In this document: positions 2,278 to 60,273 of the stretch, one piece after another
Layout of the letters: every line of letters starts with the position of its first letter
Position numbering within the stretch: the first letter of the stretch is position 1
NCBI GenBank assembly: GCA_050874585.1
Contig: JBNMKZ010000004.1
Coordinates: forward strand, 7-64,006
Reading direction: 5' to 3'
From: Verrucomicrobiota bacterium
GTDB taxonomy: Bacteria > Verrucomicrobiota > Kiritimatiellia > RFP12 > UBA1067
DNA: 64,000 bases
Notes under the pieces: model-generated
The model's database searches: none
What the model was told of the DNA's origin: nothing
What the model saw: only the letters and a program-made list of their open reading frames with translations
Program-made: the position numbers and the translations under genes

Positions 2278-3632
2278 GTATGAAAGTCTACAACAGTTTG
2301 ACGCGTTCCATCGAGGACTTGAAGCCACTCAAGGACAACGAGATTCGCCTTTATACCTGTGGTCCGACCGTCTACAATTTTGCGCACATCGGGAACTTTC
2401 GGGCCTACGCCTTTGAGGACATCTTGCGCCGTGTTATCCAGTTCAATGGCATGAAGATTCGCCAGGTGATGAATCTGACGGATGTGGATGACAAGACGAT
2501 TCGGGGCGCCAATGCCGCGAATGTGAAGTTGACGGACTATACGCAGACCTACAAGGATGCGTTCTTCGCCGACCTCAAGAAACTCAATATCCAGCCCGCC
2601 GAGGTCTATCCGGCGGCAACGGATCACATTCCCGAAATGATTGCGATAGTCGAGAAACTCGTGGAGAAGGGCATCGCCTATCGGAGTGAGGATGGGTCGG
2701 TCTATTTCAACGTTCGCAAATTCCCGGGCTATGGGAAGCTCGCCCACATTGACTTTGACAATCAGCGCACGGGGGCGCGGTGCGCGGCGGATGAGTATGA
2801 CAAGGAGAACGTCGGGGACTTTGCGCTTTGGAAAGCCTGGGAGCCGTCGGACGGGCCAGTCGGCTGGGATTCTCCGTGGGGACGCGGTCGTCCGGGTTGG
2901 CACATCGAGTGCTCGGCCATGTCGATGAAGTATCTCGGCGAGACATTCGACCTCCATACGGGTGGCATTGACAATCTCTTCCCCCATCATGAGAACGAAA
3001 TCGCACAGGCTGAGGCGGCGACGGGCAAGCCGTTCGTGAATACGTGGATGCATTGCGCCCATTTGCGGGTGAACGGCGAGAAGATGTCGAAGTCGGCGGG
3101 GAACTTCTTTACGCTTCGTGATCTGCTTGAGAAGGGGTATACAGGGCGGGAGATTCGCTACGTCCTCATCAACGCTCACTATCGGCAAGGGCTGAACTTC
3201 GCCTTTTCGGCTCTGGACGACGCGCGAAAGTCGCTCGCCCGCATTGATGCCTGCGTGGAGAAGGCGACGGAGGGTGAGATTCCCGACTGGGCGCAAAAGC
3301 ACGTGGACGACTTTACGGCGGCCGTGAATGACGACCTCAATACGCCGAAGGCGTTTGCCGCGCTCTTCGAACTCGTGCGCGAGACGAATTCGCATGGTGG
3401 CGGACCTGTGCTGGGGGCTTTCCGGCGCATGGACGAGGTGCTGGGCGTCATTTTCTTCGGCAAGGTCGCGAAGGCTGAGATTCCGGGCGAGATCCAGGCC
3501 CTGCTGACGGCGCGAGCCGAGGCCCGCAAGGCGAAGAATTGGGCCGAGAGCGACCGCCTGCGCGACGAAATCGCCGTCGCTGGCTGGATTGTCAAGGATT
3601 CAAAGGAGGGGCAGTCATGCACAAGGAAGTAA
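2274..3632 (+). CDS. cysS: cysteine--tRNA ligase
   Basis: Class I aaRS motifs HIGN and KMSKS; CysRS-like throughout; ATGA overlap with the upstream stop. Confidence 0.95.
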   Translation: MSMKVYNSLTRSIEDLKPLKDNEIRLYTCGPTVYNFAHIGNFRAYAFEDILRRVIQFNGMKIRQVMNLTDVDDKTIRGANAANVKLTDYTQTYKDAFFADLKKLNIQPAEVYPAATDHIPEMIAIVEKLVEKGIAYRSEDGSVYFNVRKFPGYGKLAHIDFDNQRTGARCAADEYDKENVGDFALWKAWEPSDGPVGWDSPWGRGRPGWHIECSAMSMKYLGETFDLHTGGIDNLFPHHENEIAQAEAATGKPFVNTWMHCAHLRVNGEKMSKSAGNFFTLRDLLEKGYTGREIRYVLINAHYRQGLNFAFSALDDARKSLARIDACVEKATEGEIPDWAQKHVDDFTAAVNDDLNTPKAFAALFELVRETNSHGGGPVLGAFRRMDEVLGVIFFGKVAKAEIPGEIQALLTARAEARKAKNWAESDRLRDEIAVAGWIVKDSKEGQSCTRK

Positions 3633-3949: not shown

Positions 3950-5446
3950 ATGAATACGTATATGGATCGGTTTATGGAGGCCTTCCCCTACGAGGGATTG
4001 ACCTATGATGACGTGACGCTGGTGACGCAGTATGCGGACTTTTTGCCAGACGACGCCTCTCTTGAGACGAAACTGACGTCGCGCACGAAGATGAAAATTC
4101 CGTTTATGTCTGCCGCGATGGATACGGTGACGGAGGCCCCGATGGCGATTGCCATGGCACTGGCCGGCGGCATCGGGTGCATTCATAAGAACTTGGAGGA
4201 GGATGAGCAGGCCGCACAGGTCCGCCTCGTGAAGAACCACCTCAACGGCATGATCGAGAACCCGGTCTGTTTTCATGAGAACGATGACATCGGTTACCTG
4301 CGCAGCGAGAAGATTGCTCGCAAGTTGAAGTTCAACGGCTTCCCGGTACTGGACGACCAGAACCGTCTTGTCGGCATGATTACGTCGAGCGATATGCGGT
4401 TTGCGCCGATGAACGCGGCGAAACTGAAGGACGTGATGCAGAAGGGCCTGCTGACGGCCAAGCCGGGGACGACGCTGAAGGAGGCCTACGACCTGATGCG
4501 CGAGAACAAGATTGGCAAGCTGCCGCTCGTGGATCAGGATGGCCATATCGTTGGTCTTTACAGCTTTACGGATGTCAGCCGTATTGTTGAGAACGCCGCC
4601 GCGCCATCCAACTGTGATGACAAGTTCCGCCTGCGTGTGTCGGCATCGGTCTCGGGCGGCAAGGGCGACCTTTCGCGCATGGAGAAACTGGCGGATGCCG
4701 GTGTTGACGTGGTGGTCGTCGATTCGGCGCATGGGCACACGAAGGGCATCATGGACATGACGGAGTACATCGTCAAGCACTTCCCGAAGGTGGATGTCAT
4801 TGCCGGAAACATTGCGACGGGCGAGGCGGCGGTGGCCTTGGCCAAGTGCGGTGCGCATGCCGTCAAGGTTGGCATCGGGCCTGGGTCGATTTGTACGACG
4901 CGTGTCGTCTGTGGCGTGGGCATTCCCCAGCTGACAGCCGTCTACAACGCGGCGAAGGCGTTGCGCGGCACGGGAGTTGCGGTCATTGCCGACGGTGGCA
5001 TCAAGCTCTCGGGCGATGTTCCGAAGGCGTTGGCGGCGGGTGCCGACTCCGTGATGCTGGGGTCCGTCCTTGCGGGTACCGAGGAGTCCCCGGGCGAGAA
5101 AATCTACTCGAACGGCCGTCAGTATGTCGTCTATCGTGGCATGGGGTCGCTTGCCGCGCTCAAGAACGGCAAGGGATCGCGTGCGCGCTATTTCCAGGAT
5201 AACGAGTCCGAGGATGACCTCGTGCCGCAGGGCATCGAGGGCATGGTTCCGTACTCGGGTCACGTGAAGTCGATTATGACCCAGTTCTGTGGCGGCCTCC
5301 GTGCTTCGCTCGGCTACTGCGGTGCGAGGACGATTGCCGAACTCCAGGAGAAGGGCAAGTTCTTCCGCGTGACCACGGCGGGTCTGCGCGAGGCGCGTCC
5401 GCACGACATCACAATTACCAAGGAAGCCCCCAACTACCGGACCTAA
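3950..5446 (+). CDS. guaB: IMP dehydrogenase
   Basis: CBS pair plus the catalytic loop [11 protein letters not shown]; 498 aa. Confidence 0.95.
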
Positions 5447-12456: not shown

Positions 12457-12612
12457 ATGAGTCAGCACGCATCTCTTAAGGGTTCAGGAAAGATTACTTC
12501 CAAGCGCAACGTCCTCAAGCGTTTTGAGCGCGTCAACTTGCTGCAGAAGCGCGGCGAGTGGAAGGAGGGTAGCCGCGGCCTCGGTCTCAAGAAGACCAAG
12601 CCGGAGGCGTAA
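12457..12612 (+). CDS. small basic protein, 51 aa (below the ORF-track length cutoff)
   Basis: Hand translation gives MSQHASLKGSGKITSKRNVLKRFERVNLLQKRGEWKEGSRGLGLKKTKPEA. It has its own promoter and a strong terminator. It resembles the small basic proteins of PVC-group bacteria as I recall them; this was not verified. Confidence 0.65.
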   Translation: MSQHASLKGSGKITSKRNVLKRFERVNLLQKRGEWKEGSRGLGLKKTKPEA

Positions 12613-12631
12613 GGTTCATCCCTCGCTGAAA

Positions 12632-12675
12632 GGGGACGCTTGGTCGGCGAACGATCGGGCGTCCCTCTTTTTTTT
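12632..12675 (+). terminator. rho-independent terminator
   Basis: GGGGACGC / GCGTCCCT stem followed by a run of 8 T at 12668-12675. Confidence 0.75.
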
Positions 12676-12679
12676 GGTT

Positions 12680-13225
12680 ATGAACGCCAGCCCGACGCTC
12701 CTGCACACATGTTGCGGACCTTGCGCGTCCGCCTGCGTCCCCGTCCTCAAGGACGAGGGCCGTTCAGTGGTTCTTTACTTTGCCAATTCCAATATCGATA
12801 CGGAGGAGGAATGGGCGCGGCGGTTGGAGGCGGCCCGCCAACTGGCCGATGCCGAGGGTGTGGAACTCGTTGTTGAACCCTATGACCACGCCGAGTGGCT
12901 GGCGTGTGTCGCCCGGGGTTTTGAGGGGGAGCCCGAGAAGGGGGCGCGGTGTGAACGGTGCTACCGCTACAATTTGCTGAAGGCGGCCCGTTATGCGGCG
13001 GCACACGGACTTGCGGAGGTGACGACTTCGCTGACGATTAGTCCTCACAAACCCTCGCCCATCGTCTTTGCCATGGGGAAGGCAGCGGCGGATTCCGTCG
13101 GGGTCTCATTTTTGCCGCGTGATTTCAAGAAGAAAGACGGATTCAAGAAGAGTGTCGCCCGGGCGAAGGAATTGGGCCTCTACCGTCAGTCCTATTGCGG
13201 GTGCGAGTTTTCCCGTCGGGGATAG
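12680..13225 (+). CDS. queH: epoxyqueuosine reductase QueH (DUF208)
   Basis: Internal ATG 12680. Motifs CCGPC and C-terminal YCGCEFS; about 181 aa. Confidence 0.85.
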   Translation: MNASPTLLHTCCGPCASACVPVLKDEGRSVVLYFANSNIDTEEEWARRLEAARQLADAEGVELVVEPYDHAEWLACVARGFEGEPEKGARCERCYRYNLLKAARYAAAHGLAEVTTSLTISPHKPSPIVFAMGKAAADSVGVSFLPRDFKKKDGFKKSVARAKELGLYRQSYCGCEFSRRG

Positions 13226-13267
13226 GGTGGAATCGTTTCCAGCGCGGCAAACTTTACGCATGGGAGA

Positions 13268-13290
13268 TTCGAGCGCGGCAGTTTAGTTTT
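13268..13290 (+). repeat. hairpin module CGCGGCA-loop-TGCCGCG, shared with the 5' extensions of repeat copies B and C
   Basis: The same 7-bp stem occurs at 58158-58179 and 61068-61121, with similar flanks (GAGCGCGGCAGTTT...TGCCGCG..TGCC.GTGG). Confidence 0.6.
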
Positions 13291-13446
13291 GCCGCGTGTG
13301 CCGTGGGGAGAACTTGCCTATTGGGAAGGAAGGACGGGCTCGTGCCTACGAAGACGCGCTCCCATCGGGACGAAAGCGTTCTCTTTTCCGCAGGAAGAGG
13401 GGCGGATATCCCGAAGGGAACGGGTTTTGATGCCCATCAGGAAGGG

Positions 13447-13530
13447 CAAGCACTAAGGTGGTTTGGATAAAGCACTAAGGTGCTTTGCTCAAAGGACTAA
13501 GGTGCTTTGTTGAAAGGACTAAGGTGCTTT
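13447..13530. repeat. four 18-bp 7-4-7 near-palindromes at exact 22-bp spacing (array I core)
   Basis: Units CAAGCAC-TAAG-GTGGTTT, AAAGCAC-TAAG-GTGCTTT and AAAGGAC-TAAG-GTGCTTT (x2) start at 13447, 13469, 13491 and 13513. Confidence 0.9.
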
Positions 13531-13612
13531 CCCTTCGTATTCCGCAACGCAGCCCTTCCTTATGGGCAGAGCAACCCTTCCTATTGGTGCAAAACGCCCA
13601 TCTTTTTGGGCG
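13531..13612. repeat. right arm of array I: CCCTT/CCCAT motifs every 22 bp, ending in a CGCCCA/TGGGCG hairpin
   Basis: CCCTT at 13531, 13553 and 13575; CCCAT at 13597. They are mirrored by AAGGG 13442, ACGGG 13420 and AGGGG 13398 about a dyad at 13488.5. Confidence 0.7.
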
Positions 13613-13846
13613 AAACTTTTCATTTTCTCAAGGAAGCGGGCGGACGCAAATCACCGTGATTCAAGATGCCCCTATCCATCTCGAAGTGCCGCGTTCCCTC
13701 GCGTCTGCCGCGCCCCTCGGGTACGCGCGCCGTTCGGATCTCGTTCTCAGGTTCTCCGACTTCCTTGTGTAGCGTTCTGAGGGCTTCCTCTTGGATTGCG
13801 CAATTTCCACTTGTTTTGATTCCGTTGTACGCTGAAAACATAATTA

Positions 13847-13855
13847 TGGTATAAT
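13847..13855 (+). promoter_or_regulatory. extended -10 TGGTATAAT for argG
   Basis: 28 nt upstream of ATG 13884, with the SD aaggag in between. Confidence 0.6.
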
Positions 13856-13883
13856 ACGCACTTGATTTCAAGGAGACTATGTC

Positions 13884-15116
13884 ATGAAACTCGAAGAACT
13901 CAAGGGTAAGACAGTTGGCGTCTGCGTGAGCGGAGGCCTCGACTCGAAGACAATCTGCTGCGTCCTTCTTGACGCGGGCGTGAAGGTTAAGGCGTTCAGC
14001 GCGAACGTCGGCCAGCCCGATGAAAAGGACATCAACGACATCAAGAAGCGTATGGCCCCCACGGGCGTGGATACGACGATTGTCGACGTGACGAAGGAAA
14101 TGGCCGACATCTGCTTCGAGACCGTCAAGTGCCAGGCGATGTATGACGGCGGCTACTGGAACTCGACGGGTATCGCCCGTGCGGTGACCGTCCAGAAGCT
14201 CCTGCCGGCGATGAAGAAGGCCGGTTGCTCGGTGCTCGTGCACGGTGCAACGGGGCGCGGCAATGACCAGATGCGCTTTGAGCGGTATGTGAACGTCATG
14301 GACCCGAAGTTCGGCGTGTATGCGCCGTGGCGTGATGCGGATCTTCTCAAGAAGTTCCCCGGACGCACGCAGATGGTCGAGTTCCTCGCCAAGCGCGGCA
14401 TCGTCGCCTTCGTGGGCACGAAGAAGAAATACTCGACGGATGCGAACCTCGCCGGCCTTTCCCACGAGGCCGAGGATCTTGAGTCGATGGAGACGTCGAT
14501 GCGCATCGTGAAGCCCACGATGGGCGTGTGGCCCGAGAAGGCCCCGAACAAGGTCGAGAAGGTGACGCTTTCCTTTGTCAAGGGCCGCTGCGTGGCGGTC
14601 AACGGCAAGAAGATGACGCCGTACGAGGTCATGCTTGAGATGAACAAGATTGGCGGACGCAATGGCATCGGCATGAAGCATGCGCTTGAGAACCGCATCA
14701 TCGGTACGAAGAGCCGTGGCGTGTATGAGGCTCCTGGTATGGAAGTTCTCTCGTGGGGTCTCAAGTACATCTATGAGGGTGTCATGGATCGCCGGTCGAC
14801 CCAGTTCTTCCAGCATCTCTCGAAGTTCATCGCCGACCAGATTTACGATGGCCGCTGGTTCGATCCGGCGACCCGTGCGGCTCGTGCGGCCGTGCAGGTC
14901 TGGGCCGACAAGGCAACGGCCGAGGTGACGCTTGGGCTTTACAAGGGCAACATCTTCTTCGAGTCCCTCAAGGGCCTGAAGGCGACGATCTACAATGAGG
15001 CCGACAGCTCGATGGAGGCGTCGAATGGCTTGAACCCGCACAGCTCGCAGGGCTTTGCCGAGATTCAGTCCGTTGAGGCCAAGATGCTGGCGAAGGCCGG
15101 TCAGATCGAGCTCTGA
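13884..15116 (+). CDS. argG: argininosuccinate synthase
   Basis: 410 aa; N-terminal PP-loop VSGGLDS; ArgG-like throughout. Confidence 0.95.
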   Translation: MKLEELKGKTVGVCVSGGLDSKTICCVLLDAGVKVKAFSANVGQPDEKDINDIKKRMAPTGVDTTIVDVTKEMADICFETVKCQAMYDGGYWNSTGIARAVTVQKLLPAMKKAGCSVLVHGATGRGNDQMRFERYVNVMDPKFGVYAPWRDADLLKKFPGRTQMVEFLAKRGIVAFVGTKKKYSTDANLAGLSHEAEDLESMETSMRIVKPTMGVWPEKAPNKVEKVTLSFVKGRCVAVNGKKMTPYEVMLEMNKIGGRNGIGMKHALENRIIGTKSRGVYEAPGMEVLSWGLKYIYEGVMDRRSTQFFQHLSKFIADQIYDGRWFDPATRAARAAVQVWADKATAEVTLGLYKGNIFFESLKGLKATIYNEADSSMEASNGLNPHSSQGFAEIQSVEAKMLAKAGQIEL

Positions 15117-26627: not shown

Positions 26628-26723
26628 CGCGGACGGGATAATGCGCCTACATCGTTTTGACGCTTTGTTCCGCGTGGACGGTTTTTGGATATTTTGTTTT
26701 GAAACCCATAAGAAGGATGGGGA

Positions 26724-27567
26724 ATGAAAGTATCGCGAATGCTTGTTTATGCGGGCTGATGGGCCTGCCGTTCTTTTTGCAGGCGGCGGGTGCTCCCTCG
26801 GACTATCCAATGACCGATGTCAACCGGATGTTGGCCGATGATGTGCGCGGCGAGGCATTGAGATCGTTGACTACCATCTCCATGTTCGGGGCGGCATGAC
26901 CCCAGAGAAATGCGTTTCGCGAGAACGGGCGTGGATTGTCCGTTCAAGTGCCATGGACAATCATGGGCGGGAGTGGGAGACGAGTACGGACGCGCAATTG
27001 TGCGCTTTTGCCGCGAAAGCCCGTGCGGCGAGCGCTGGAATGCCAGTTGGCATCCAGGTGAATGACCGGGATTGGTTTGAGCAGATTGCGCCGAAGACGC
27101 GGCAGAAGTTTGACTATATCCTTGCGGATACGATGATTTTTGGCAATGATTCCGACTGGCGAAAGAATTGCCTTTGGAATCCGCAGAAGATTGTTGACGA
27201 GGACAAGTGGATGGAAGCCTATGTGAATCACCACCTGAGGATTCTTTCCGAGCCGATTTCCATTTTGGCGAACCCGACCTATCTGCCGGTCGAAATTGCC
27301 GGTGACTACGATCGGCTCTGGACGGAAGAACGGATGCGGCGGGTGATTGGTAAGGCCGTTGAGCGGGGTATTGCGATTGAGATTCAGGCGGCATCGCCTT
27401 TCCCCCGGCCGAAGTTTCTGCGCCTTGCCAAGCAAATGGGGGCTAAATTCTCGTTTGGAACGAACAATTTTGATGACCGCCCGAAGGACTTAACGCATTG
27501 GCTTGATGTCATCACTTGGCTTGACTTGCATGGGGAAGACATTTGGAAGCCAGGCGATTTGAAGTAG
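26724..27567 (+). pseudogene. PHP/amidohydrolase-like metal-dependent hydrolase, apparently disrupted by two single-base frameshifts near the 5' end
   Basis: The SD-preceded ATG 26724 gives MKVSRMLVYAG then a stop. The signal peptide continues in another frame (LMGLPFFLQAAG...). The metal motif VDYHLH lies in the main frame, upstream of its first ATG (26896) and downstream of a stop at 26839. Confidence 0.55.
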
Positions 27568-27605
27568 GGTGCGGTGTCGCTAACCGCTGCAATTATGTGA
27601 TGTTT

Positions 27606-27640
27606 GCCAGCCACTCCTTGCGGATGGCTGGCGGCTTTTA
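27606..27640 (+). terminator. probable rho-independent terminator
   Basis: GCCAGCCA / TGGCTGGC stem, then GGCTTTTA. Confidence 0.6.
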
Positions 27641-27774
27641 TGGGTGGGTGTGAATGCATTCGTTTTTCCTGTCGGTTTCGTGTTTCTGCCATTTTTATTC
27701 GTGGCGGTTTTTTTGTCACGAATCGCGGTGAATGAATGCAGGCGTAAGTGAAATAACACAAAAGCCCGTGCGTA

Positions 27775-29850: not shown

Positions 29851-29876
29851 GAGAAACCATCAGTTTCGGTGATTCG

Positions 29877-29915
29877 GGGATGCCGCGGAAGCTTCGCGGC
29901 ATCCCTTTGCTCTTT
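29877..29915 (+). terminator. rho-independent terminator
   Basis: GGGATGCCGCG / CGCGGCATCCC 11-bp stem, then TTTGCTCTTTG. Confidence 0.75.
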
Positions 29916-30287
29916 GTCGTCCTGCAAAGCCACCTTTAATTTGATGACTTGAAAGGGCCATTGGCCTGCAGAAAGTCCCTAATCCTTCTTGGCAAGACAT
30001 GGAGCGTAAGCATACGCCGTTTCTCCGTTGAGTGATTTCCTGTGAAAGGTGTCCCCAGTCCTCAAGAGATTTCCGCGCCTTGTTACGCGGCAGAAGCCCG
30101 TACTCTTGGGGTGTCTACCGCCTGACGAGGCGGTGGCAGTTCTCGATGCCGCGCTTCCCGATGTGGCTGTAGAATGCCCTCAGACACGGGATGGCCGTGC
30201 GGATTATCATCCACGCGTCGACGGGGAACGAAGGAGTCCCAGCGCGGCGTGCCTGAAGAGAACGGGTTGGCATGGGCAAGGGAAGCG

Positions 30288-30379
30288 TCTGGGATGCGCA
30301 ACCCAACGGGTCTAACTTGCGCAACCGAAGGGGTCTGGGATGCGCAACCCAAAGGGTTTAGGTTGCGCAACCTAAAGGG
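30288..30379. repeat. four tandem 23-bp units with a TGCGCAACC core (array II, left arm)
   Basis: tctgggatgcgcaacccaacggg / tctaacttgcgcaaccgaagggg / tctgggatgcgcaacccaaaggg / tttaggttgcgcaacctaaaggg. Unit 4 contains the perfect palindrome GGTTGCGCAACC. Confidence 0.9.
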
Positions 30380-30463
30380 AAAGGACTAAGGAGGTTTCTT
30401 CAAAGGACTAAGGTGCTTTGATCAAACCACCTTAGTGCTTTGTGCAAAGGACTAAGGTGCTTT
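30380..30463. repeat. four 18-bp 7-4-7 near-palindromes at 22-bp spacing (array II core)
   Basis: AAAGGAC-TAAG-GAGGTTT, AAAGGAC-TAAG-GTGCTTT, AAACCAC-CTTA-GTGCTTT and AAAGGAC-TAAG-GTGCTTT start at 30380, 30402, 30424 and 30446. This is the same unit family as 13447-13530. Confidence 0.9.
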
Positions 30464-30749
30464 CCCGTTCTCCTGCTTGTCTTCACTCGTGGAGACAAGC
30501 CTCTCCACTCTCTGTAATCGTCAAAAACCCCGTTTGTGATGAGCATTTCCGCATCGATTCATGCAGTCGCGGGAGCTCGCATCCGCGCGAACGGGCGCAG
30601 GGTGATGCGCAGGTCCCGCCTGACGGCCCCGTCGTGCTCGTCGGGATTCTGCGCTCCCGGTCGGGCGAGGTTCCTTCCTCTTTTACGGACCCATTCGGTT
30701 TTACAATTTTCCGATTTCTTTTCTGCACTTGCACAGGAGGCGCGGAATT

Positions 30750-30758
30750 TGATACAAT
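30750..30758 (+). promoter_or_regulatory. extended -10 TGATACAAT for infC
   Basis: 34 nt upstream of the proposed start at 30793. Confidence 0.5.
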
Positions 30759-56676: not shown

Positions 56677-57102
56677 CTAACGTCGGTTGACGCGGTCGCC
56701 CTTGAGCCGCCAGCTGAAGTCGCTCGTCGAAAGGTCCAACTTGGCAAGGGGGCTGACGCGCACGACAAGCTTGTTCTTGCTCGACAATCTCCCATCCTTT
56801 TCGACCGACCCCTTCAGAAACGGCTGGAGGCGAAGGTAGCCATCCAGATTGACGGCGTTTCCCTTTTCAAGGTGCTCCCGGACCAGGCCCATCACGCACT
56901 CAAACTGGGACTTCAAGAACTCCTCGCTCCCCATGGTGGCACCCCTATCCTTCGCACCCTTGATCAGCTCGTTGAACCCGACGGTCTTCTGCCCCAGTAT
57001 CCTCGGCGTATGCGTCACGGTCTTCCGAATCGGATGCTTGAAGTCGACAACCTGGTACTCCAGGACCTTCCTGTTGGCATACACCTCCAGTTTCTTGCTC
57101 AT
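56677..57102 (-). CDS. HU-like (Bacteroidota-type HU-HIG/DUF4469-like) DNA-binding protein
   Basis: The internal start at 57102 is preceded by the SD aaggag. 141 aa, MSKKLEVYANRKVLEYQVVDF...; the pattern resembles histone-like HU-HIG proteins as I recall them. Confidence 0.6.
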   Translation of the reverse strand: MSKKLEVYANRKVLEYQVVDFKHPIRKTVTHTPRILGQKTVGFNELIKGAKDRGATMGSEEFLKSQFECVMGLVREHLEKGNAVNLDGYLRLQPFLKGSVEKDGRLSSKNKLVVRVSPLAKLDLSTSDFSWRLKGDRVNRR

Positions 57103-57157: not shown

Positions 57158-57166
57158 ATTGTACCA
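57158..57166 (-). promoter_or_regulatory. extended -10 TGGTACAAT for the HU-like gene
   Basis: Read on the minus strand, about 55 nt upstream of the start at 57102. Confidence 0.5.
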
Positions 57167-57284: not shown

Positions 57285-57616
57285 TCATGAATGCGGGTCA
57301 TTCCTCTCATGCAAAAGGGCAAGACATCTCATGAACAAGGGTCAACCATGTCACAACGAAGGGCGGAGATGTACAGGACAAAGGGAAAGTACCATGCTAC
57401 TTTTGATAAAGCACCATGCTGGTTTGTCCAAACCACCATGCTACTTTTCACAAACCAGCATGGTGGTTTCCGCTTGTCATAAGATCCCTGACCCTTCTTC
57501 ATGAGATGTCCGACCCTTCTTCATGAGATGTCTTGCCCTTTTGTATGACAGGAATTTCACCAAATCAAGGGAGGAATTGCCCGTCGTCATGAGATTGTTT
57601 GGCCCGTTTCTTAGGA
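57285..57616. repeat. dyad-symmetric array of about fifteen 22-bp-phased units (array III)
   Basis: Left units TCAnnAnnAAGGGnnA start at 57285, 57307, 57329, 57351 and 57372. Four 7-4-7 palindromes with a CATG centre start at 57386, 57408, 57430 and 57452. Inverted copies of the left units start at 57489, 57511, 57533 and 57577. The symmetry axis is at 57427.5. Confidence 0.9.
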
Positions 57617-57617
57617 A

Positions 57618-57898
57618 TGCCGCGGGATGCCTGTGGTCGGCCTTGTCCCTCCTCTCGGGCGAGGGGGTGAGCGCGAAGTGTCGCGAGTGAGGTCTTCCAC
57701 GGGGCGCCACCGTGAGAGTTGTCTTGTCCGAAACCAGTGATAACCACCGAGGCTGGACAGGCTAAGTAAACTTTTGTTGCCCAGGCGCGAAAGGTGAGCG
57801 CAACCGTGGAAGCCGAGACCGAGCGACAGCTTCGCGCAAGCCCCCGAGCAAGCGGTTCCTGCGGGGCAGAACACGAAAACCTTCAGTGAATTTCAGTG
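57618..57898 (+). repeat. long repeat copy A (candidate structured RNA or mobile repeat)
   Basis: 57618-57867 matches 58173-58422 with 2 mismatches in 250 nt. The shared tail CTTCAGTGAATTTCAGTG ends at 57898. Confidence 0.9.
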
Positions 57899-58126
57899 TC
57901 GGTCGATAGACCGTTCAGTGTGTTCTGTGGCAGAAAACAAGCACTCCCTCCACCCACGCCGTCGGATCATCCGTCCCTTCGGGACTGCGAACCCCTCAGT
58001 TCGCCGTCGCCGCGCCCCACCCGCTCCTCCCTCCGCCCGCTCGTGGGCCTGTCCGGGGCTTCGCGAACGGCAGTCGCATGGACGGGGAATGGCACATTCG
58101 GCCCTGCTTGGGAGGCCGGGGAAAAG

Positions 58127-58495
58127 CCACACCGCGCAGGCGTTCAGAAGGCGCAAGCGCGGCAAAACCATCTGCCGCGGGATGCCTGTGGTCGGCCTTG
58201 TCCCTCCTCTCGGGCGAGGGGGTGAGCGCGAAGTGTCGCGAGTGAGGTCTTCCACGGGGCGCCACCGTGAGAGTTGTCCTGTCCGAAACCAGTGATAACC
58301 ACCGAGGCTGGACAGGCTAAGTAAACTTTTGTTGCCCAAGCGCGAAAGGTGAGCGCAACCGTGGAAGCCGAGACCGAGCGACAGCTTCGCGCAAGCCCCC
58401 GAGCAAGCGGTTCCTGCGGGGCTGACACGAAAATTCACGAAAGCCGCCTGACGGCGGACACGAAACCGCCGCGCCCTCTTCAGTGAATTTCAGTG
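58127..58495 (+). repeat. long repeat copy B with a 5' extension shared with copy C
   Basis: The 5' extension CCACACCGCGCAGGCGT...CGCGGCA...TGCCGCG matches 61040-61121. The core is 99% identical to A. There is a 3' insertion relative to A. Confidence 0.9.
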
Positions 58496-58831
58496 ACCGC
58501 CGCTAGGCATGGTAAACTCCAGGGGTAAAAATGGGTGTAGATTGCGAAGTAAGTGGACAGGGGCGACGGTAGGTCGGCGAGGGTCGCTTGTCCCCATGTC
58601 TTGAAGGCACGGATTTGCCTTGGAAGCCAAGACTCCACTGTGGGGCCTGCGTGTCCCGCGCGGAGTCCGTTCATTGGAGATTCCCCAATTTTTGAGGCAA
58701 GAAAATCGCCGCGCCCTTGAAAACAAAGGGTGAAGTGGCGATTTCCGTTTTGCGCCAAGTGAAAATCCGACAATAGGAGCACCGAGGCGTTCCGTGTCGA
58801 GACGCAGAAATTGGCCGTTGCGAGGGGTTCG

Positions 58832-60112
58832 TCATCCCGTGTTCATTCCGAAGAATGCGAAGAGCGACGCCCCGTCCCTCTTCTCGGCTTCCTCGGGGTC
58901 GAACCCGCGCCACCTGCGGCCTCTTTTCAGGATGTCGCTCGCTCCGTCCGCGATGGCGTAGAAGTGGAATTCCGGCACGTCGTGTATCCTGAACGACATG
59001 CGCGCGACGCTTCTTGCGATGACGTCGTGCCTCTCCGAGTTCCCGCTCCATGCCATGCTGAAGTAGACTGTAGTCAGGACGATCGCGGCCAGGGCCTTGA
59101 TCTTGGCGTACCTGAACAGGCGCATGTCCTCGAGGCTGTAGGACTGCTTGACGTGGCGGATGGTGTCCTCGACCCTCCAGCGGGTGATGTATCCCTCCAC
59201 GACCTGCCAGAGCGCCTCGCGCGTCGTTGTCTTCGCGAGGGTCGTCAGCAGCATCATCGGCTTCTGCCCGAACCCCCTCACGACGACCATGTGCAGGAGC
59301 CTGTCGGGGATGTCGGGAAGCCGCACGGGCACGGCGCCGAACTCGATCGTCACGCGACGCTCCTTCCCGTGGTGGTCGAACGTCACGACCTCCCTGTAGC
59401 GCATCCGGCACTCCCAGGCGAGTTCGCCGCACATGACGTTGCGCTTCCAGCTGCGCACGTACCTTTCCTTGAGTCGGACGATGAAATCCAGCCCTTTCCC
59501 GAGGAAATGGCGGTAGAACTCGATGTTGTCTCCGCCACGGTCGTACACGAATATCCCCCGCCTCTTCGTGTGCCTGGTGATTCCATCCACGATGGGCTTC
59601 ACCTCCTCGTTCTCGCTGACGAACCCCGGCGAGTCCGCGGACCACAGCCTGAAGTGCAGCGGAATCGGCCTGCGGCCGCCTGATTCGCGGGCTACGGCCA
59701 TGCAGCCCCAGAAGCCGAGGTTGTCGCCCACCTCGCCCTTGCTCCCGTCCCAGACCTTGGCGAGGTACTCCATCTTCTTCGCGTAGGGCTTCTGCACGTC
59801 GGACGGGTCCAGGATGATGAGCGCGTTCCTGTGGACCCTCCTGGCGCCCTCGGAGGCGATGAGGCGGTGCAGCCCCGCCTCCAGCCCGTCCGACGAGAGC
59901 ATCCGGCTGAGCCTGTCCTCGACCTTTTTCGGGGTGGTTTCCTCCTTCAGCGCGCGGACCACGGACGAGAGCTTCACGTCCTTCTCCGCCATGATCCCGT
60001 AGACCATGTCGCCTATGAAACGGGCGACCGGCTTGTGGAAATGGGGGGAAATCCTCCCCAGAAAAGATTCAAGTTGCCCGAGCAGTTTCGCCGCAATTGT
60101 GGTATCATGCAT
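58832..60112 (-). CDS. IS4-family DDE transposase
   Basis: 426 aa, with YDRGGD and the IS4 Y-x2-R-x3-E-x6-K signature (YITRWRVEDTIRHVK). Confidence 0.9.
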   Translation of the reverse strand: MHDTTIAAKLLGQLESFLGRISPHFHKPVARFIGDMVYGIMAEKDVKLSSVVRALKEETTPKKVEDRLSRMLSSDGLEAGLHRLIASEGARRVHRNALIILDPSDVQKPYAKKMEYLAKVWDGSKGEVGDNLGFWGCMAVARESGGRRPIPLHFRLWSADSPGFVSENEEVKPIVDGITRHTKRRGIFVYDRGGDNIEFYRHFLGKGLDFIVRLKERYVRSWKRNVMCGELAWECRMRYREVVTFDHHGKERRVTIEFGAVPVRLPDIPDRLLHMVVVRGFGQKPMMLLTTLAKTTTREALWQVVEGYITRWRVEDTIRHVKQSYSLEDMRLFRYAKIKALAAIVLTTVYFSMAWSGNSERHDVIARSVARMSFRIHDVPEFHFYAIADGASDILKRGRRWRGFDPEEAEKRDGASLFAFFGMNTG

Positions 60113-60149
60113 GGCGTCGCCTTTCCTGTTTGGTGTTTAGCACTTCGGC

Positions 60150-60158
60150 ATTATACCG
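60150..60158 (-). promoter_or_regulatory. -10 CGGTATAAT for the transposase, within a CTTCGG/CCGAAG palindrome
   Basis: Read on the minus strand, about 38 nt upstream of the start at 60112. Confidence 0.5.
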
Positions 60159-60273
60159 AAGATCGAACTCGAAAGGCGACTCTCTTTCCCAAAAATCGGC
60201 TCATAACCGCGCAGACCGTCGCAACGTCTTGCCAGCGAAGAAAAATGGGGAACCTCCAAAAGCGGATACCCCG

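Follow-up and report, generated by a model that had tools for sequence, protein, structure and literature searches.

BrickBuilt elements of Porphyromonas gingivalis are dispersed, strictly intergenic and built on a spacer-free tandem repeat of ~22–23 nt framed by "leader" and "tail" flanking modules; they occur in tens of copies, are species-restricted, lie near promoters and break assemblies (Klein et al. 2015, PMC4596501). In enterobacteria, REP/BIME sequences form high-copy intergenic clusters of palindromes in alternating orientation. REPs are 20–40-nt hairpin units with a GTAG head, usually found in transcribed 3′ UTRs and mobilised by RAYTs; BIME-1 (RIP/RIB) has an IHF site between two REPs. 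One class thereby supplies an HU/IHF-family protein with sites across the whole genome, and other classes bind gyrase. The BOX elements of Streptococcus pneumoniae, composed as boxA-boxB(n)-boxC, are likewise intergenic and near promoters, and are thought to act as RNA structures or mobile elements. Phased operators, such as the pho boxes of PhoB/OmpR (7 + 4 bp), the ParR-parC site and the omega-protein repeats, are occupied cooperatively by several dimers on one face of the DNA, which is wrapped in the process. Among potential DNA binders, the HU-HIG clade is given neither a DNA target nor a conserved gene linkage in the one paper on it consulted here, which considered sequence-specific action by these proteins improbable (Burroughs et al. 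2017, PMC5499826).

The spacer between queH and argG in the window analysed here, a 64-kb stretch of DNA from a gut Kiritimatiellota bacterium, carries one copy (A1) of a dispersed intergenic repeat family in that bacterium, which we call phased palindrome arrays. No description of such arrays was found in the literature searched, and they probably constitute an undescribed interspersed repeat family of unusually strict design. As defined here, a member of the family has 18-bp units of the form AAAnnAs-N4-sTnnTTT spaced at an exact 22-bp step, three as a minimum and four as a rule. A copy of the family spans ~260 bp, or roughly twelve 22-bp units, with four in the core and three to four degenerate arm units per side. 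The polarity of the arms points towards the centre, with xGGG on the left and CCCx on the right, and family-wide the GGG occupies unit positions 20–22 for ~4 units outward from the core.

A1 itself extends over 13381–13618, without an assigned strand, and comprises a left arm, a four-unit core and a right arm. The core (13447–13530, no strand) consists of four 18-bp units, AAAsnAC-TAAG-GTnsTTT, separated by 4-bp spacers: CAAGCACTAAGGTGGTTT at 13447, AAAGCACTAAGGTGCTTT at 13469, and AAAGGACTAAGGTGCTTT at both 13491 and 13513. The step is exactly 22 bp and the general unit form is AAAsnAC-N4-GTnsTTT, so that the core can equally be read as eight 7-bp half-sites at an 11-bp step with alternating orientation. 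Tandem Repeats Finder (TRF) returned a period of 22, 3.8 copies, 88% matches and zero indels on 13448–13530. The left arm (13381–13446, no strand) holds three 22-bp units with xGGG at each end, the pentamers being AGGGG at 13398, ACGGG at 13420 and AAGGG at 13442, and its innermost unit contains TGATGCCCATCAGGAAGGG. Mirroring it, the right arm (13531–13618, no strand) has four 22-bp units starting with CCCxT, namely CCCTT at 13531, 13553 and 13575 and CCCAT at 13597. The two arms share more than the pentamer, with TGCCCATnAGGAAGGG repeated in mirror orientation.

The mirror centre lies at 13488.5, and the arms are in mirror register, with GGG on the left or CCC on the right at seven of the eight positions; in the 64 kb only one other array, that starting at 57386, attains this score. 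An arm score was computed by counting GGG at four 22-bp register positions to the left of a core and CCC at four to the right; when every window position was taken as a mock core start, scores of at least 5 were reached only by A1, the array A3 described below and their 22-bp shifts, a fraction of 1.1e-4. Periodicity also held in the arms without the core, where the lag-22 autocorrelation was 0.47 on the left (reached in 11 of 5000 shuffles) and 0.59 on the right (reached in 0 of 5000). A1 thus fulfils both criteria of the array family, units at an exact 22-bp step and mirror-polar GGG/CCC arms. It does not meet the criterion for a CRISPR, having only 4 bp between units, and no cas genes were present among the flanking genes annotated or compared.

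Upstream of A1 on the forward strand lies queH (12524–13225; Pfam QueH, E = 1.3e-57), which gene callers report as 181 aa on other contigs (those of strains L002 and L005), so that its true start is probably near 12680. Downstream, also on the forward strand, lies argG (13884–15116), encoding argininosuccinate synthase and identified by Pfam. An extended −10 promoter element of argG, TGGTATAAT, is situated at 13847–13855 on the forward strand, 320 bp from the end of the A1 core and ~235 bp from the end of its right arm, and is kept in L002 and L005. Across the window the extended −10 consensus has ~17 occurrences, most of them immediately 5′ of gene starts. No terminator was detected by a scan of 13200–13900, tRNAs were the sole matches to Rfam 15 in the window at gathering thresholds, and for 13230–13880 Rfam returned nothing with the E-value limit relaxed to 1. 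The initial annotation, made from sequence alone, had placed a four-unit array with mirror symmetry about 13488.5 between housekeeping genes, upstream of the argG promoter. Every position was rechecked and the coordinates and units held base for base; the symmetry survived recomputation at the 7/8 register positions given above, and the location was upheld by the Pfam assignments of QueH and ArgG and by the located −10 element.

A scan for core units (≤3 mismatches) found three arrays in the window, each with exactly four units, starting at 13447, 30380 and 57386. Approximately 5% of the window's intergenic regions carry arrays, and those of dnaK and groESL have none. All three arrays lie upstream of an extended −10 promoter and not within a leader. 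The A2 element (30187–30625, forward strand) has a left arm at 30283–30379 made of four 23-bp units with a TGCGCA palindrome, a core at 30380–30463 whose third unit is flipped to CTTA, and a degenerate right arm; it is located between the intrinsic argD terminator (29876–29906) and the infC promoter (30730–30758). At least 13 paralogous copies of the A2 type were found. Identity among 13 of them was 78–86% overall, 94% in the core and 76% and 87.5% in the arms, and subfamilies share 440–660 bp of flank at 78–86% identity. The arms of A2-type copies are not mutually complementary. Orientation relative to the downstream gene is the same in ~11 of 15 A2-type copies, the directions of transcription and replication not being separable. 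A small ORF in the A2-type left flank was rejected as non-coding, its stop positions differing among copies, and an apparent IS30-like remnant left of A2 proved to be a chance resemblance, an IS30-like fragment occurring only beside the array at locus L031. Strains lacking A2 were sought via the ArgD protein, which turned up only 1.7-kb contigs.

A3 (57285–57616, no strand) has its four-unit core at 57386–57469, with a CATG centre, and mirror arms carrying TCTCATGA in addition to AAGGG/CCCTT. Compared with its orthologue (L062) in a 95%-identical Kiritimatiellota metagenome-assembled genome (MAG), the core and ~15 bp on each side are unchanged, and the arms differ by ~8%. At least 23 array loci were found in that MAG, with more in related MAGs and metagenomes, and analogous arrays were found in other lineages. 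The likeness between A1 and the array at 57285–57616 proposed in the initial annotation held, both having four palindromes stepped at 22 bp between GGG/CCC arms and the centres being different, although its description of AAGGG/CCCTT arms had to be refined, GGG/CCC alone being the invariant signal. Its "accessory island" beside A3 was refined to a 2.6-kb insertion that contains an IS and is absent from the MAG. Its claim of a dispersed family also held, through the third array (30283–30463), the 23 MAG loci and the copies in related MAGs and metagenomes; it had named relatives without the array and an absence of copies beyond the window as what would refute the claim, and both the array in relatives and such copies are present. 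As to whether the array is an insertion, a point for which it had proposed a comparison with close relatives, the refinement is that the array itself has no recognisable insertion ends.

Core architecture is tightly constrained across the family. Exactly four core units at exactly 22 bp were present in 44 of 48 arrays (window and genome loci), and in 193 units, across subfamilies and species, the A at unit positions 1, 2, 3 and 6 and the T at positions 13, 16, 17 and 18 are ≥97% conserved, while positions 4–5, 14–15 and the centre are variable. Strains of the same species (L002, L005 and L092) carry an array at the A1 locus, where the number of core units is 4 (window and L005), 3 (L002) or 1 (L092), which indicates that the full array is not essential there. 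In L002 and L005, unit 2 of the core is flipped and one additional 22-bp unit is present in the left arm. An array precedes gltB in each of two species; although their GltB proteins are 93% identical, the two arrays differ in their centres and in the order of modules. In a second species the element was seen in either orientation with respect to the promoter. Distances from array to downstream promoter range from 120 to 330 bp, which argues against direct, phase-locked contact with RNA polymerase.

With respect to mobility, the presence of an array upstream of argB differs between 95%-identical genomes, and the sole available comparison of an occupied with an arrayless site showed a replacement and not a clean insertion. 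An alignment of 10–11 A2-type copies revealed neither terminal inverted repeats nor target duplications, the boundaries being ragged and mosaic. No transposase, rep, par or recombinase gene recurs among the array-flanking genes, and an HU-like protein is the only recurrent neighbouring gene family. Plasmid records gave no array match, a scan of viral contigs gave a single, probably chance, match, and many arrays are found at contig ends.

Genes adjacent to arrays include queH, argG, argD, argB, carB and infC; others preceded by arrays, mostly named by inspection of the sequence, are fhs, citrate synthase, gltB, rpsO, a GyrB/ParE-like gene, pcnB, rubrerythrin, dapB and deoC, among others. Several specific regulators were considered. 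An ArgR/arginine regulon, raised by the arrays at argG, argB, carB and argD, was rejected since other arrays precede infC, fhs, gltB and further genes; the array unit is also unlike an ARG box. A role as sigma-54 enhancer was rejected, with a TGGCAC-N5-TGC promoter found only at the gltB copies, and the motif GCGCGGCA near arrays occurs genome-wide and is not array-specific. The units bear some resemblance to a DnaA box, a parS site, an NtrC site and a CRP site, but the spacing and flanks do not fit.

Whether the arrays act as double-stranded DNA or as hairpins was assessed from base pairing within units. Unit positions 4 and 15 form a Watson-Crick pair in 51% of distinct units versus 48% after shuffling, and the commonest units are mismatched in mid-stem (G-G or C-C), for example AAAGCAC..GTGGTTT. 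Across 13 paralogues, RNAalifold gave a covariation term of just −0.6 kcal/mol. The 246-nt A1 region does fold at −108 kcal/mol (z-score −6.2), although this is a trivial consequence of its dyad symmetry. The lack of covariation between half-units, the position of A2 between a terminator and a promoter, and the stronger conservation of core over arms together favour a double-stranded, protein-binding platform. The arrays are thus likely to be better explained as such a platform than as an RNA or hairpin element, binding itself being inferred, and they are probably not part of mRNA.

A candidate trans-acting binder is encoded in the window. The gene at 56680–57102 on the reverse strand specifies a 141-aa HU-HIG-like protein (HU/IHF superfamily) and lies just downstream of A3, whose core is 284 bp upstream of the start codon; it has a −10 element, TGGTACAAT, at 57166–57158 and an AAGGAG ribosome-binding site before the ATG. 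Eight homologues were found, all 132–148 aa long. The AlphaFold2 (AF2) model, of moderate quality (pLDDT 64), shows an HU-like helix-helix-strand-strand-strand core, and the best Foldseek match was 4fmr (BVU_2165; probability 0.99), followed by HU and IHF structures, with E-values of ~0.01. Comparison with HU-HIG-like proteins by hhalign gave 96.5% (E = 8e-10), and a PDB profile search gave weak matches to TF1 and HU. In Pfam and NCBIfam searches the protein fell below thresholds, with no match to PF18291. Based on fold and profile comparison it is likely to be HU/IHF-like, within the limits set by the moderate model and the subthreshold family scores.

Arrays accompany relatives of this gene. 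All four homologues with enough upstream DNA have an array of three to four units at a 22-bp step ending 100–290 bp 5′ of the start; these array-bearing homologues share 41–67% identity with the window protein, and the gene context differs for at least one of them. Among loci fetched by the array pattern alone, six of eight independent HU-HIG-like genes had an array ≤500 bp upstream of the start, and the one canonical HU gene (n = 1) had none nearby. Relatives of a clear HU-HIG protein had an array upstream in two of three cases, several arrays in other lineages are upstream of clear PF18291 genes, and in cultured Treponema saccharophilum (JCM 32279) a four-unit AAAAA..TTTTT array is located 270 bp upstream of an HU-family gene (AABB03_RS12610). 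An attempt to extend the link to ordinary Bacteroidales paralogues mostly failed: among HU-family genes of Bacteroidales, Prevotella and Treponema in PLSDB, an upstream tandem repeat was present in only 2/8, one of them a non-palindromic 20-mer. The association is therefore not general for HU-HIG. It may also have other causes; both gene and array could mark a class of promoter, or the two could travel as a unit.

We propose, with a probability of roughly 0.5, that A1 is a docking platform for the HU/IHF-like DNA-bending protein encoded in the window; binding is inferred, without a binding experiment. Given the 11-bp alternation of half-sites, all of them should face roughly one side of the helix. 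The array, as double-stranded DNA, would then offer several sites to a dimeric DNA-bending protein that binds them cooperatively, with four dimers on the core and weaker arm sites extending the complex. The best candidate binder would be the 141-aa HU-HIG-like protein (56680–57102), a choice supported by genomic association only; the position of its gene directly downstream of A3 is an arrangement typical of autoregulated DNA-binding proteins, and A1 would be an orphan site bound in trans. The putative A1 complex would lie 235–320 bp upstream of the −10 element, after queH ends and before the argG promoter, and could there influence the local architecture or supercoiling of the DNA or tune argG transcription. 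The family has spread and diversified into subfamilies via duplication or an unknown mobilisation route, and still gains and loses whole 22-bp units.

A bolder version, which we consider possible but less likely than not and which likewise rests on inferred binding, holds that one branch of the HU/IHF superfamily, the HU-HIG-like proteins, reads sequence and has the arrays as its genome-wide high-affinity sites. Four dimers phased at two helical turns would bend the 88-bp core into approximately one tight turn, the polar arms would extend the wrap, and the resulting positioned, nucleosome-like particle would insulate or tune the adjacent promoter, with the protein autoregulating its own gene via the array upstream of it. 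Array and protein would co-diversify between lineages, namely Kiritimatiellota, a lineage with Bacteroidota-type promoters, MAGs from termite guts, and Treponema.

The rival we regard as possible is that the array has no host function and belongs to a selfish, non-autonomous class of interspersed repeats, being MITE-like with an embedded minisatellite, much as in BrickBuilt or BOX. Its regularity would then reflect common descent plus slippage, and its position upstream of promoters would reflect only tolerance of insertion. In its favour are the multiple copies with subfamilies sharing flanks, the variable presence upstream of argB between 95%-identical genomes, the gain and loss of whole 22-bp units among strains in core and arms, the IS elements adjoining A3 and the L031 array, and the position of many arrays at contig ends, as expected for repeats; BrickBuilt is itself proof that such elements exist. 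However, the terminal inverted repeats and target-site duplications of a MITE were not found at the ragged, mosaic boundaries, no transposase is recurrently adjacent, and conservation peaks at the centre and not at the ends. The number of units remains four in 44/48 arrays despite slippage, the architecture is constant across species while the sequence turns over, and an association with HU-HIG-like genes would not be expected for junk.

Less plausible is a single-stranded element, in which REP/BIME- or terminator-like hairpins, or one long hairpin, would form in RNA or in single-stranded DNA during replication, with a role in transcript stability or termination or as the target of an HUH-type transposase. 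The strong fold of the 246-nt region (−108 kcal/mol, z-score −6.2) would fit, as would the hairpin-like look of each unit (7-bp stem, 4-nt loop, then TTT), and the flips of single units between strains; flips of this kind would be expected from template switching at hairpins. Against this explanation, which we consider unlikely, the fold follows trivially from dyad symmetry, pair 4–15 is at chance level, the commonest units have mid-stem mismatches, and compensatory change is essentially absent among the 13 paralogues. Moreover, no terminator was found by scan in 13200–13900, Rfam gave no match even at E up to 1, A2 follows a genuine terminator and precedes the next promoter, and the A2-type arms are not mutually complementary. 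A cis site for a DNA transaction, such as an iteron origin, a ParR/parC-like centromere, Tn7/Mu-type ends or a recombinase accessory site, would account for the inversion of the arms around the centre. Iterons and Tn7/Mu transposase sites typically have a 22-bp period, and the lambda origin and the pSK41 parC site offer parallels to the four palindromic units. We nonetheless judge it very unlikely, with three arrays in 64 kb and at least 23 per genome (MAG) in housekeeping intergenic regions, no recurrently adjacent rep, par, transposase or recombinase genes, nothing in plasmid records and one probably chance match in viral contigs, and the best conservation at the centre and not at the outer ends.

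If the docking-platform model is true, it would provide a concrete DNA target for the enigmatic, rapidly diversifying HU-HIG proteins and would make their function directly testable, also in cultured T. saccharophilum. It would likewise add a new bacterial chromatin element, with tens to hundreds of positioned multi-dimer sites between transcription units, paralleling IHF-binding BIMEs in concept but with a different and much more regular architecture, and would give the gut Kiritimatiellota, which have hardly been studied, a defined repeat family. Even as a selfish repeat, the arrays would be an apparently undescribed interspersed family with an unusually strict design. Practically, the arrays fragment metagenome assemblies, and the strain-dependent number of units makes them possible VNTR-like strain markers.

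Compared with described systems, the arrays have only the general architecture in common with BrickBuilt, whose repeat and terminal repeats are unlike the array units and flanks. The BrickBuilt repeat, AGAYCATARTATCCTCTCRTRTG, is a direct, non-palindromic 23-mer, whereas array units are dyad-symmetric and show no sequence relation to it; BrickBuilt copy numbers run from 1 to 22.8, against almost always four units here; BrickBuilt ends in IS5-like terminal inverted repeats with target duplications in some cases, neither of which was found for the arrays; and the mirror symmetry of the array arms sets them apart from BrickBuilt. BOX shares a tandemly repeated middle module between two different end modules, but boxB is 45 bp long, varies in number and contains no phased palindrome. 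Phased operators match the arrays in their 7-bp half-sites, 4-bp spacers, 11-bp step and 22 bp per dimer, yet are single sites beside their own operon, mostly direct repeats, and neither form a genome-wide family nor have mirror arms. The window protein resembles the HU-HIG clade (Pfam PF18291; PMC5499826; structure 4FMR) by fold search and profile comparison, although it is from Kiritimatiellota while the clade is from Bacteroidota, the typical Bacteroidales members of which lack upstream arrays. Relative to REP/BIME, the expected arm complementarity is lacking in array units (51% versus 48% shuffled), the GTAG head of REPs is absent from every unit, no transposase is recurrent among flanking genes, and no IHF consensus is apparent by eye in the arrays. 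The arrays further differ in their exact 22-bp phasing and, for A2, in a position clearly outside the flanking transcription units. By analogy, the IHF-bound class of REP/BIME nevertheless remains the closest functional counterpart to the proposed model.

The junction between queH and argG carries a real, non-random repeat array, A1 (element 13381-13618). The initial annotation had described four dyad-symmetric units at 22-bp steps between arms bearing GGG and CCC motifs, and that description held exactly when units, motifs, register, and mirror centre were rechecked. The core (13447-13530) comprises four 18-bp dyad-symmetric units at 13447, 13469, 13491, and 13513; motifs ending in GGG at 13398, 13420, and 13442 on the left, and starting with CCC at 13531, 13553, 13575, and 13597 on the right, keep the same 22-bp register, and motifs and units are mirrored about 13488.5. 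TRF returned a period of 22 with 3.8 copies and 0 indels. An arm score over eight register positions, four on each side of the core (GGG sought on the left, CCC on the right), was 7/8 for A1; with every window position as a mock start, scores of ≥5 were confined to A1, the sister array A3, and 22-bp shifts thereof (fraction 1.1e-4). Core apart, lag-22 identity was 0.47 in the left arm (equalled in 11/5000 shuffles) and 0.59 in the right (0/5000), and the arms have a longer mirror motif in common, TGCCCATnAGGAAGGG.

Three arrays of four units apiece were detected in the window by a mismatch-tolerant scan, namely A1 (13447), A2 (30380), and A3 (57386), on chromosomal DNA whose G+C content is 56-63% and whose plus strand is strongly G-skewed. 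A1 has queH on one side and argG on the other; the extended -10 element of argG (TGGTATAAT at 13847) is separated from the core by 320 bp and from the right arm by ~235 bp. A2 is flanked by infC and a class-III aminotransferase gene (probably argD), and more narrowly by the intrinsic terminator of the latter (29876-29906) and the infC promoter (30730-30758). A3 is upstream of a minus-strand gene for a 141-aa protein resembling HU-HIG, a clade of the HU/IHF superfamily (PF18291). Each array is upstream of an extended -10 promoter, a very regular (A/T)TGGTATAAT element found ~17 times in the window (e.g., 35070, 37095, and 48275); dnaK and groESL have no array. This element often stands just 9-12 nt ahead of the start codon, suggesting many leaderless mRNAs. 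An octamer, GCGCGGC(A/G), is strongly over-represented and strand-skewed in the 64 kb (60 plus-strand and 34 minus-strand copies), and is not array-specific.

A1 is a member of a dispersed, structured, multi-lineage family. Searching species-representative genomes with a two-adjacent-unit pattern recovered 55 loci, 23 of them from a single Hadza-gut Kiritimatiellaeota MAG (CAKTUI01; DNA 93-97% identical to the window) and the remainder mostly from three further gut MAGs. The A2-type subfamily has at least 13 copies with ~440 bp (up to 660 bp) in common at 78-86% identity; A1-type, A3-type, and a fourth type with TCTCCGTGAAGA arms were also distinguished. Other species have the same architecture with different sequences, the centres being CGCG or GCGC and the arms having GGT/ACC in place of GGG/CCC. 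A stricter three-unit pattern matched at least 120 metagenome loci. The majority represent one organism with 57% G+C, Bacteroidota-type TAnnTTTG promoters, and ~1 array per 10 kb (loci L077, L083, L096, L117, L163, and L164; metagenomes Ga0065709 and Ga0065711), with three unit types (AAACGACTGCGGTCGTTT, AAACGAAGGGCGTCGTTT, and AAATGAGTTAACTCGTTT) to all of which the outer half-sites AAACGA..TCGTTT are common, and with 3 to 9 units per array, a looser four-unit rule than in Kiritimatiellota. A search of Rfam gave no match, and a viral-contig scan gave one, probably by chance.

Within the family, the core is much more strongly constrained than the arms. Exactly four core units were found in 44 of 48 arrays (window and genome loci). 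Across 193 units, conservation is ≥97% at positions 1-3 (AAA), 6 (A), 13 (T), and 16-18 (TTT), position 7 is mostly C and 12 mostly G, and variability is seen at positions 4-5 and 14-15 and in both the centre and the spacer (4 bp each); the array can therefore be described as a row of eight 7-bp half-sites whose orientation alternates from one 11-bp step to the next. Arm units retain GGG at positions 20-22, A at 18, and CA near 11-12, a signal that fades by about the fourth unit from the core. Between A3 and its orthologue in the Hadza-gut MAG (95% identical to the window) there are 0 differences in the core and ~15 bp on each side, against ~8% in the arms, and thirteen dispersed A2-type copies have a core identity of 94% versus 76% and 87.5% in the arms. 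Two species with 93% identical GltB proteins both have an array upstream of gltB (glutamate synthase large subunit), differing in centre sequence and module order. In both, a sigma-54-type promoter, TGGCACGgttcgTGC, was noted downstream of the array (L035 ~3270-3300; L016).

The queH-argG junction is a rearrangement hotspot. The A1 locus differs among strains with identical ArgG proteins and in a more distant strain, a human gut metagenome contig (L092; OQVL01009320.1). One strain (L005) carries four units, the second of which is flipped (CTTA), another (L002) has three, and both have a left arm one unit longer than the window's; L092 retains both arms around a single core unit, an exact 66-bp deletion. 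The occurrence of 4-, 3-, and 1-unit alleles speaks against an essential role for the full array at this locus. In L001, L003, L004, and other strains with identical ArgG, the sequence is wholly different right up to the argG start codon, comprising an IS, two small ORFs (192 and 176 aa; apparently membrane proteins), and a different promoter, with neither queH nor an array. In L092, moreover, just 560 bp without any HU-like gene separate an A2-type from an A3-type array, with the one-unit A1 allele at a distance of 3.5 kb (319-1177 and 4546-5351 noted), giving three arrays within 5 kb.

Elsewhere, the MAG has an A2-type element upstream of argB (L037 5208-6230) where the window has ~1 kb instead (26630-27745), including a 223-aa ORF (26896-27567) without a Pfam hit; this is a replacement polymorphism and not a clean insertion. 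Immediately right of A3 is a 2.6-kb insertion (57625-60261) missing from the same MAG (L062). This segment encodes a 426-aa DDE_Tnp_1 transposase (58832-60112, minus strand) as well as a 181-aa ORF with a low score, and its IS is also found ahead of argG in L001 and further strains. Another locus (L031 2853-3488) has a degraded IS30-like transposase gene with its end ~250 bp from an A2-type array, and with the IS beside A3 this is a hint that arrays or their surroundings attract IS insertions. Neither terminal inverted repeats nor target duplications could be defined; the family accordingly behaves as a minisatellite-bearing interspersed repeat, the route of its spread not being identified.

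Arrays are reproducibly associated with HU-HIG-like genes. When array-flanking genes were compared all against all, a single non-orthologous pair emerged, consisting of the gene that follows A3 and an array-adjacent gene of another species. The former (56680-57102, minus strand) is preceded by a ribosome-binding site and a -10 element of its own, TGGTACAAT, and its 141-aa product has eight database homologues of 132-148 aa and no Pfam or NCBIfam hit. We place it in the HU/IHF superfamily on the basis of the HU topology of its AF2 model (pLDDT 64), Foldseek matches to the HU-HIG structure BVU_2165 (4fmr; probability 0.99) and then ~thirty HU/IHF entries, and profile comparison with HU-HIG-like proteins (96.5%, E 8e-10). 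All four homologues with enough upstream DNA (41-67% identical, at least one in a different gene context) have an upstream array whose near end is 100-290 bp before the start, made of three TAAG units, four CATG/TATG units, four CGCG units, or, most divergently, four 22/23-bp direct repeats. Among loci fetched by array pattern alone, an HMM identified nine independent HU-like genes, eight of them HU-HIG-like; six of these eight have an array ≤500 bp upstream of the start (estimated P ~2e-4 against a rough 12% null; ~2e-3 excluding the three seed proteins), a further one is followed by an array at the 3' end, and the ninth gene, a canonical HU, has none adjacent. Relatives of a clear PF18291 protein have an upstream array in two of three cases, and an HU-family gene of the cultured Treponema saccharophilum has a four-unit AAAAA..TTTTT array ~270 bp upstream, one unit flipped. 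The link is not universal, any upstream tandem repeat being found in just 2/8 HU-family genes from Bacteroidales, Prevotella, and Treponema records. An analysis limited to coding neighbourhoods (Burroughs et al. 2017; PMC5499826) called HU-HIG proteins enigmatic, reported no conserved gene linkage for them, and judged sequence specificity improbable. At two loci (L189 1986-3429 and L195 1509-2375), DNA methyltransferase genes come after the HU-HIG-like genes, and L189 additionally has an NgoFVII-type restriction enzyme gene there; these neighbours might be relevant to the "biological conflict" idea put forward for HU-HIG proteins.

A role as an RNA or single-stranded DNA hairpin is unlikely. 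The A1 region does fold strongly as RNA (-108 kcal/mol, z = -6.2), but this is uninformative because any dyad-symmetric sequence folds so, and the family shows no hairpin signature. Complementarity at stem pair 4-15 is 51% among distinct units and 48% after shuffling, the commonest units have G-G or C-C mismatches mid-stem, compensatory change is essentially absent among 13 paralogues (covariation term -0.6 kcal/mol), no terminator-like site was found in 13200-13900, and A2 is outside both flanking transcription units; we therefore conclude that the family acts as double-stranded DNA.

On our main reading, to which we give a probability of ~0.5, the arrays would be cooperative binding platforms for an HU-HIG-like, DNA-bending protein, with A3 the putative autoregulatory copy and A1 a trans-bound site between queH and the argG promoter; binding is inferred, without binding data. 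A geometry of 7 + 4 bp would suit dimers in successive major grooves on one helix face. The complex at A1 might serve insulation, DNA topology, or argG modulation, a choice undecidable from these data. A serious rival, which we rate clearly behind, is a selfish BrickBuilt- or BOX-like repeat; the two readings are partly compatible, since such repeats can carry protein sites. An origin, centromere, or transposon end is very unlikely, and plasmid records gave no array match.

Tests of membership rejected A1 as a member of REP/BIME (on the hairpin criterion), MITE, BrickBuilt, iteron/centromere sites, CRISPR, and every Rfam family. Among described elements, the one most similar in architecture is BrickBuilt of P. 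gingivalis (PMC4596501), from which A1 is set apart by its type of repeat, by how copy number behaves, and by terminal repeats; in proposed function, the nearest is the IHF-binding class of BIMEs, and in geometry, pho-box and ParR-type arrays. We place A1 among the bacterial interspersed intergenic repeats; through the link between genes and arrays, a more novel possibility becomes open to testing.
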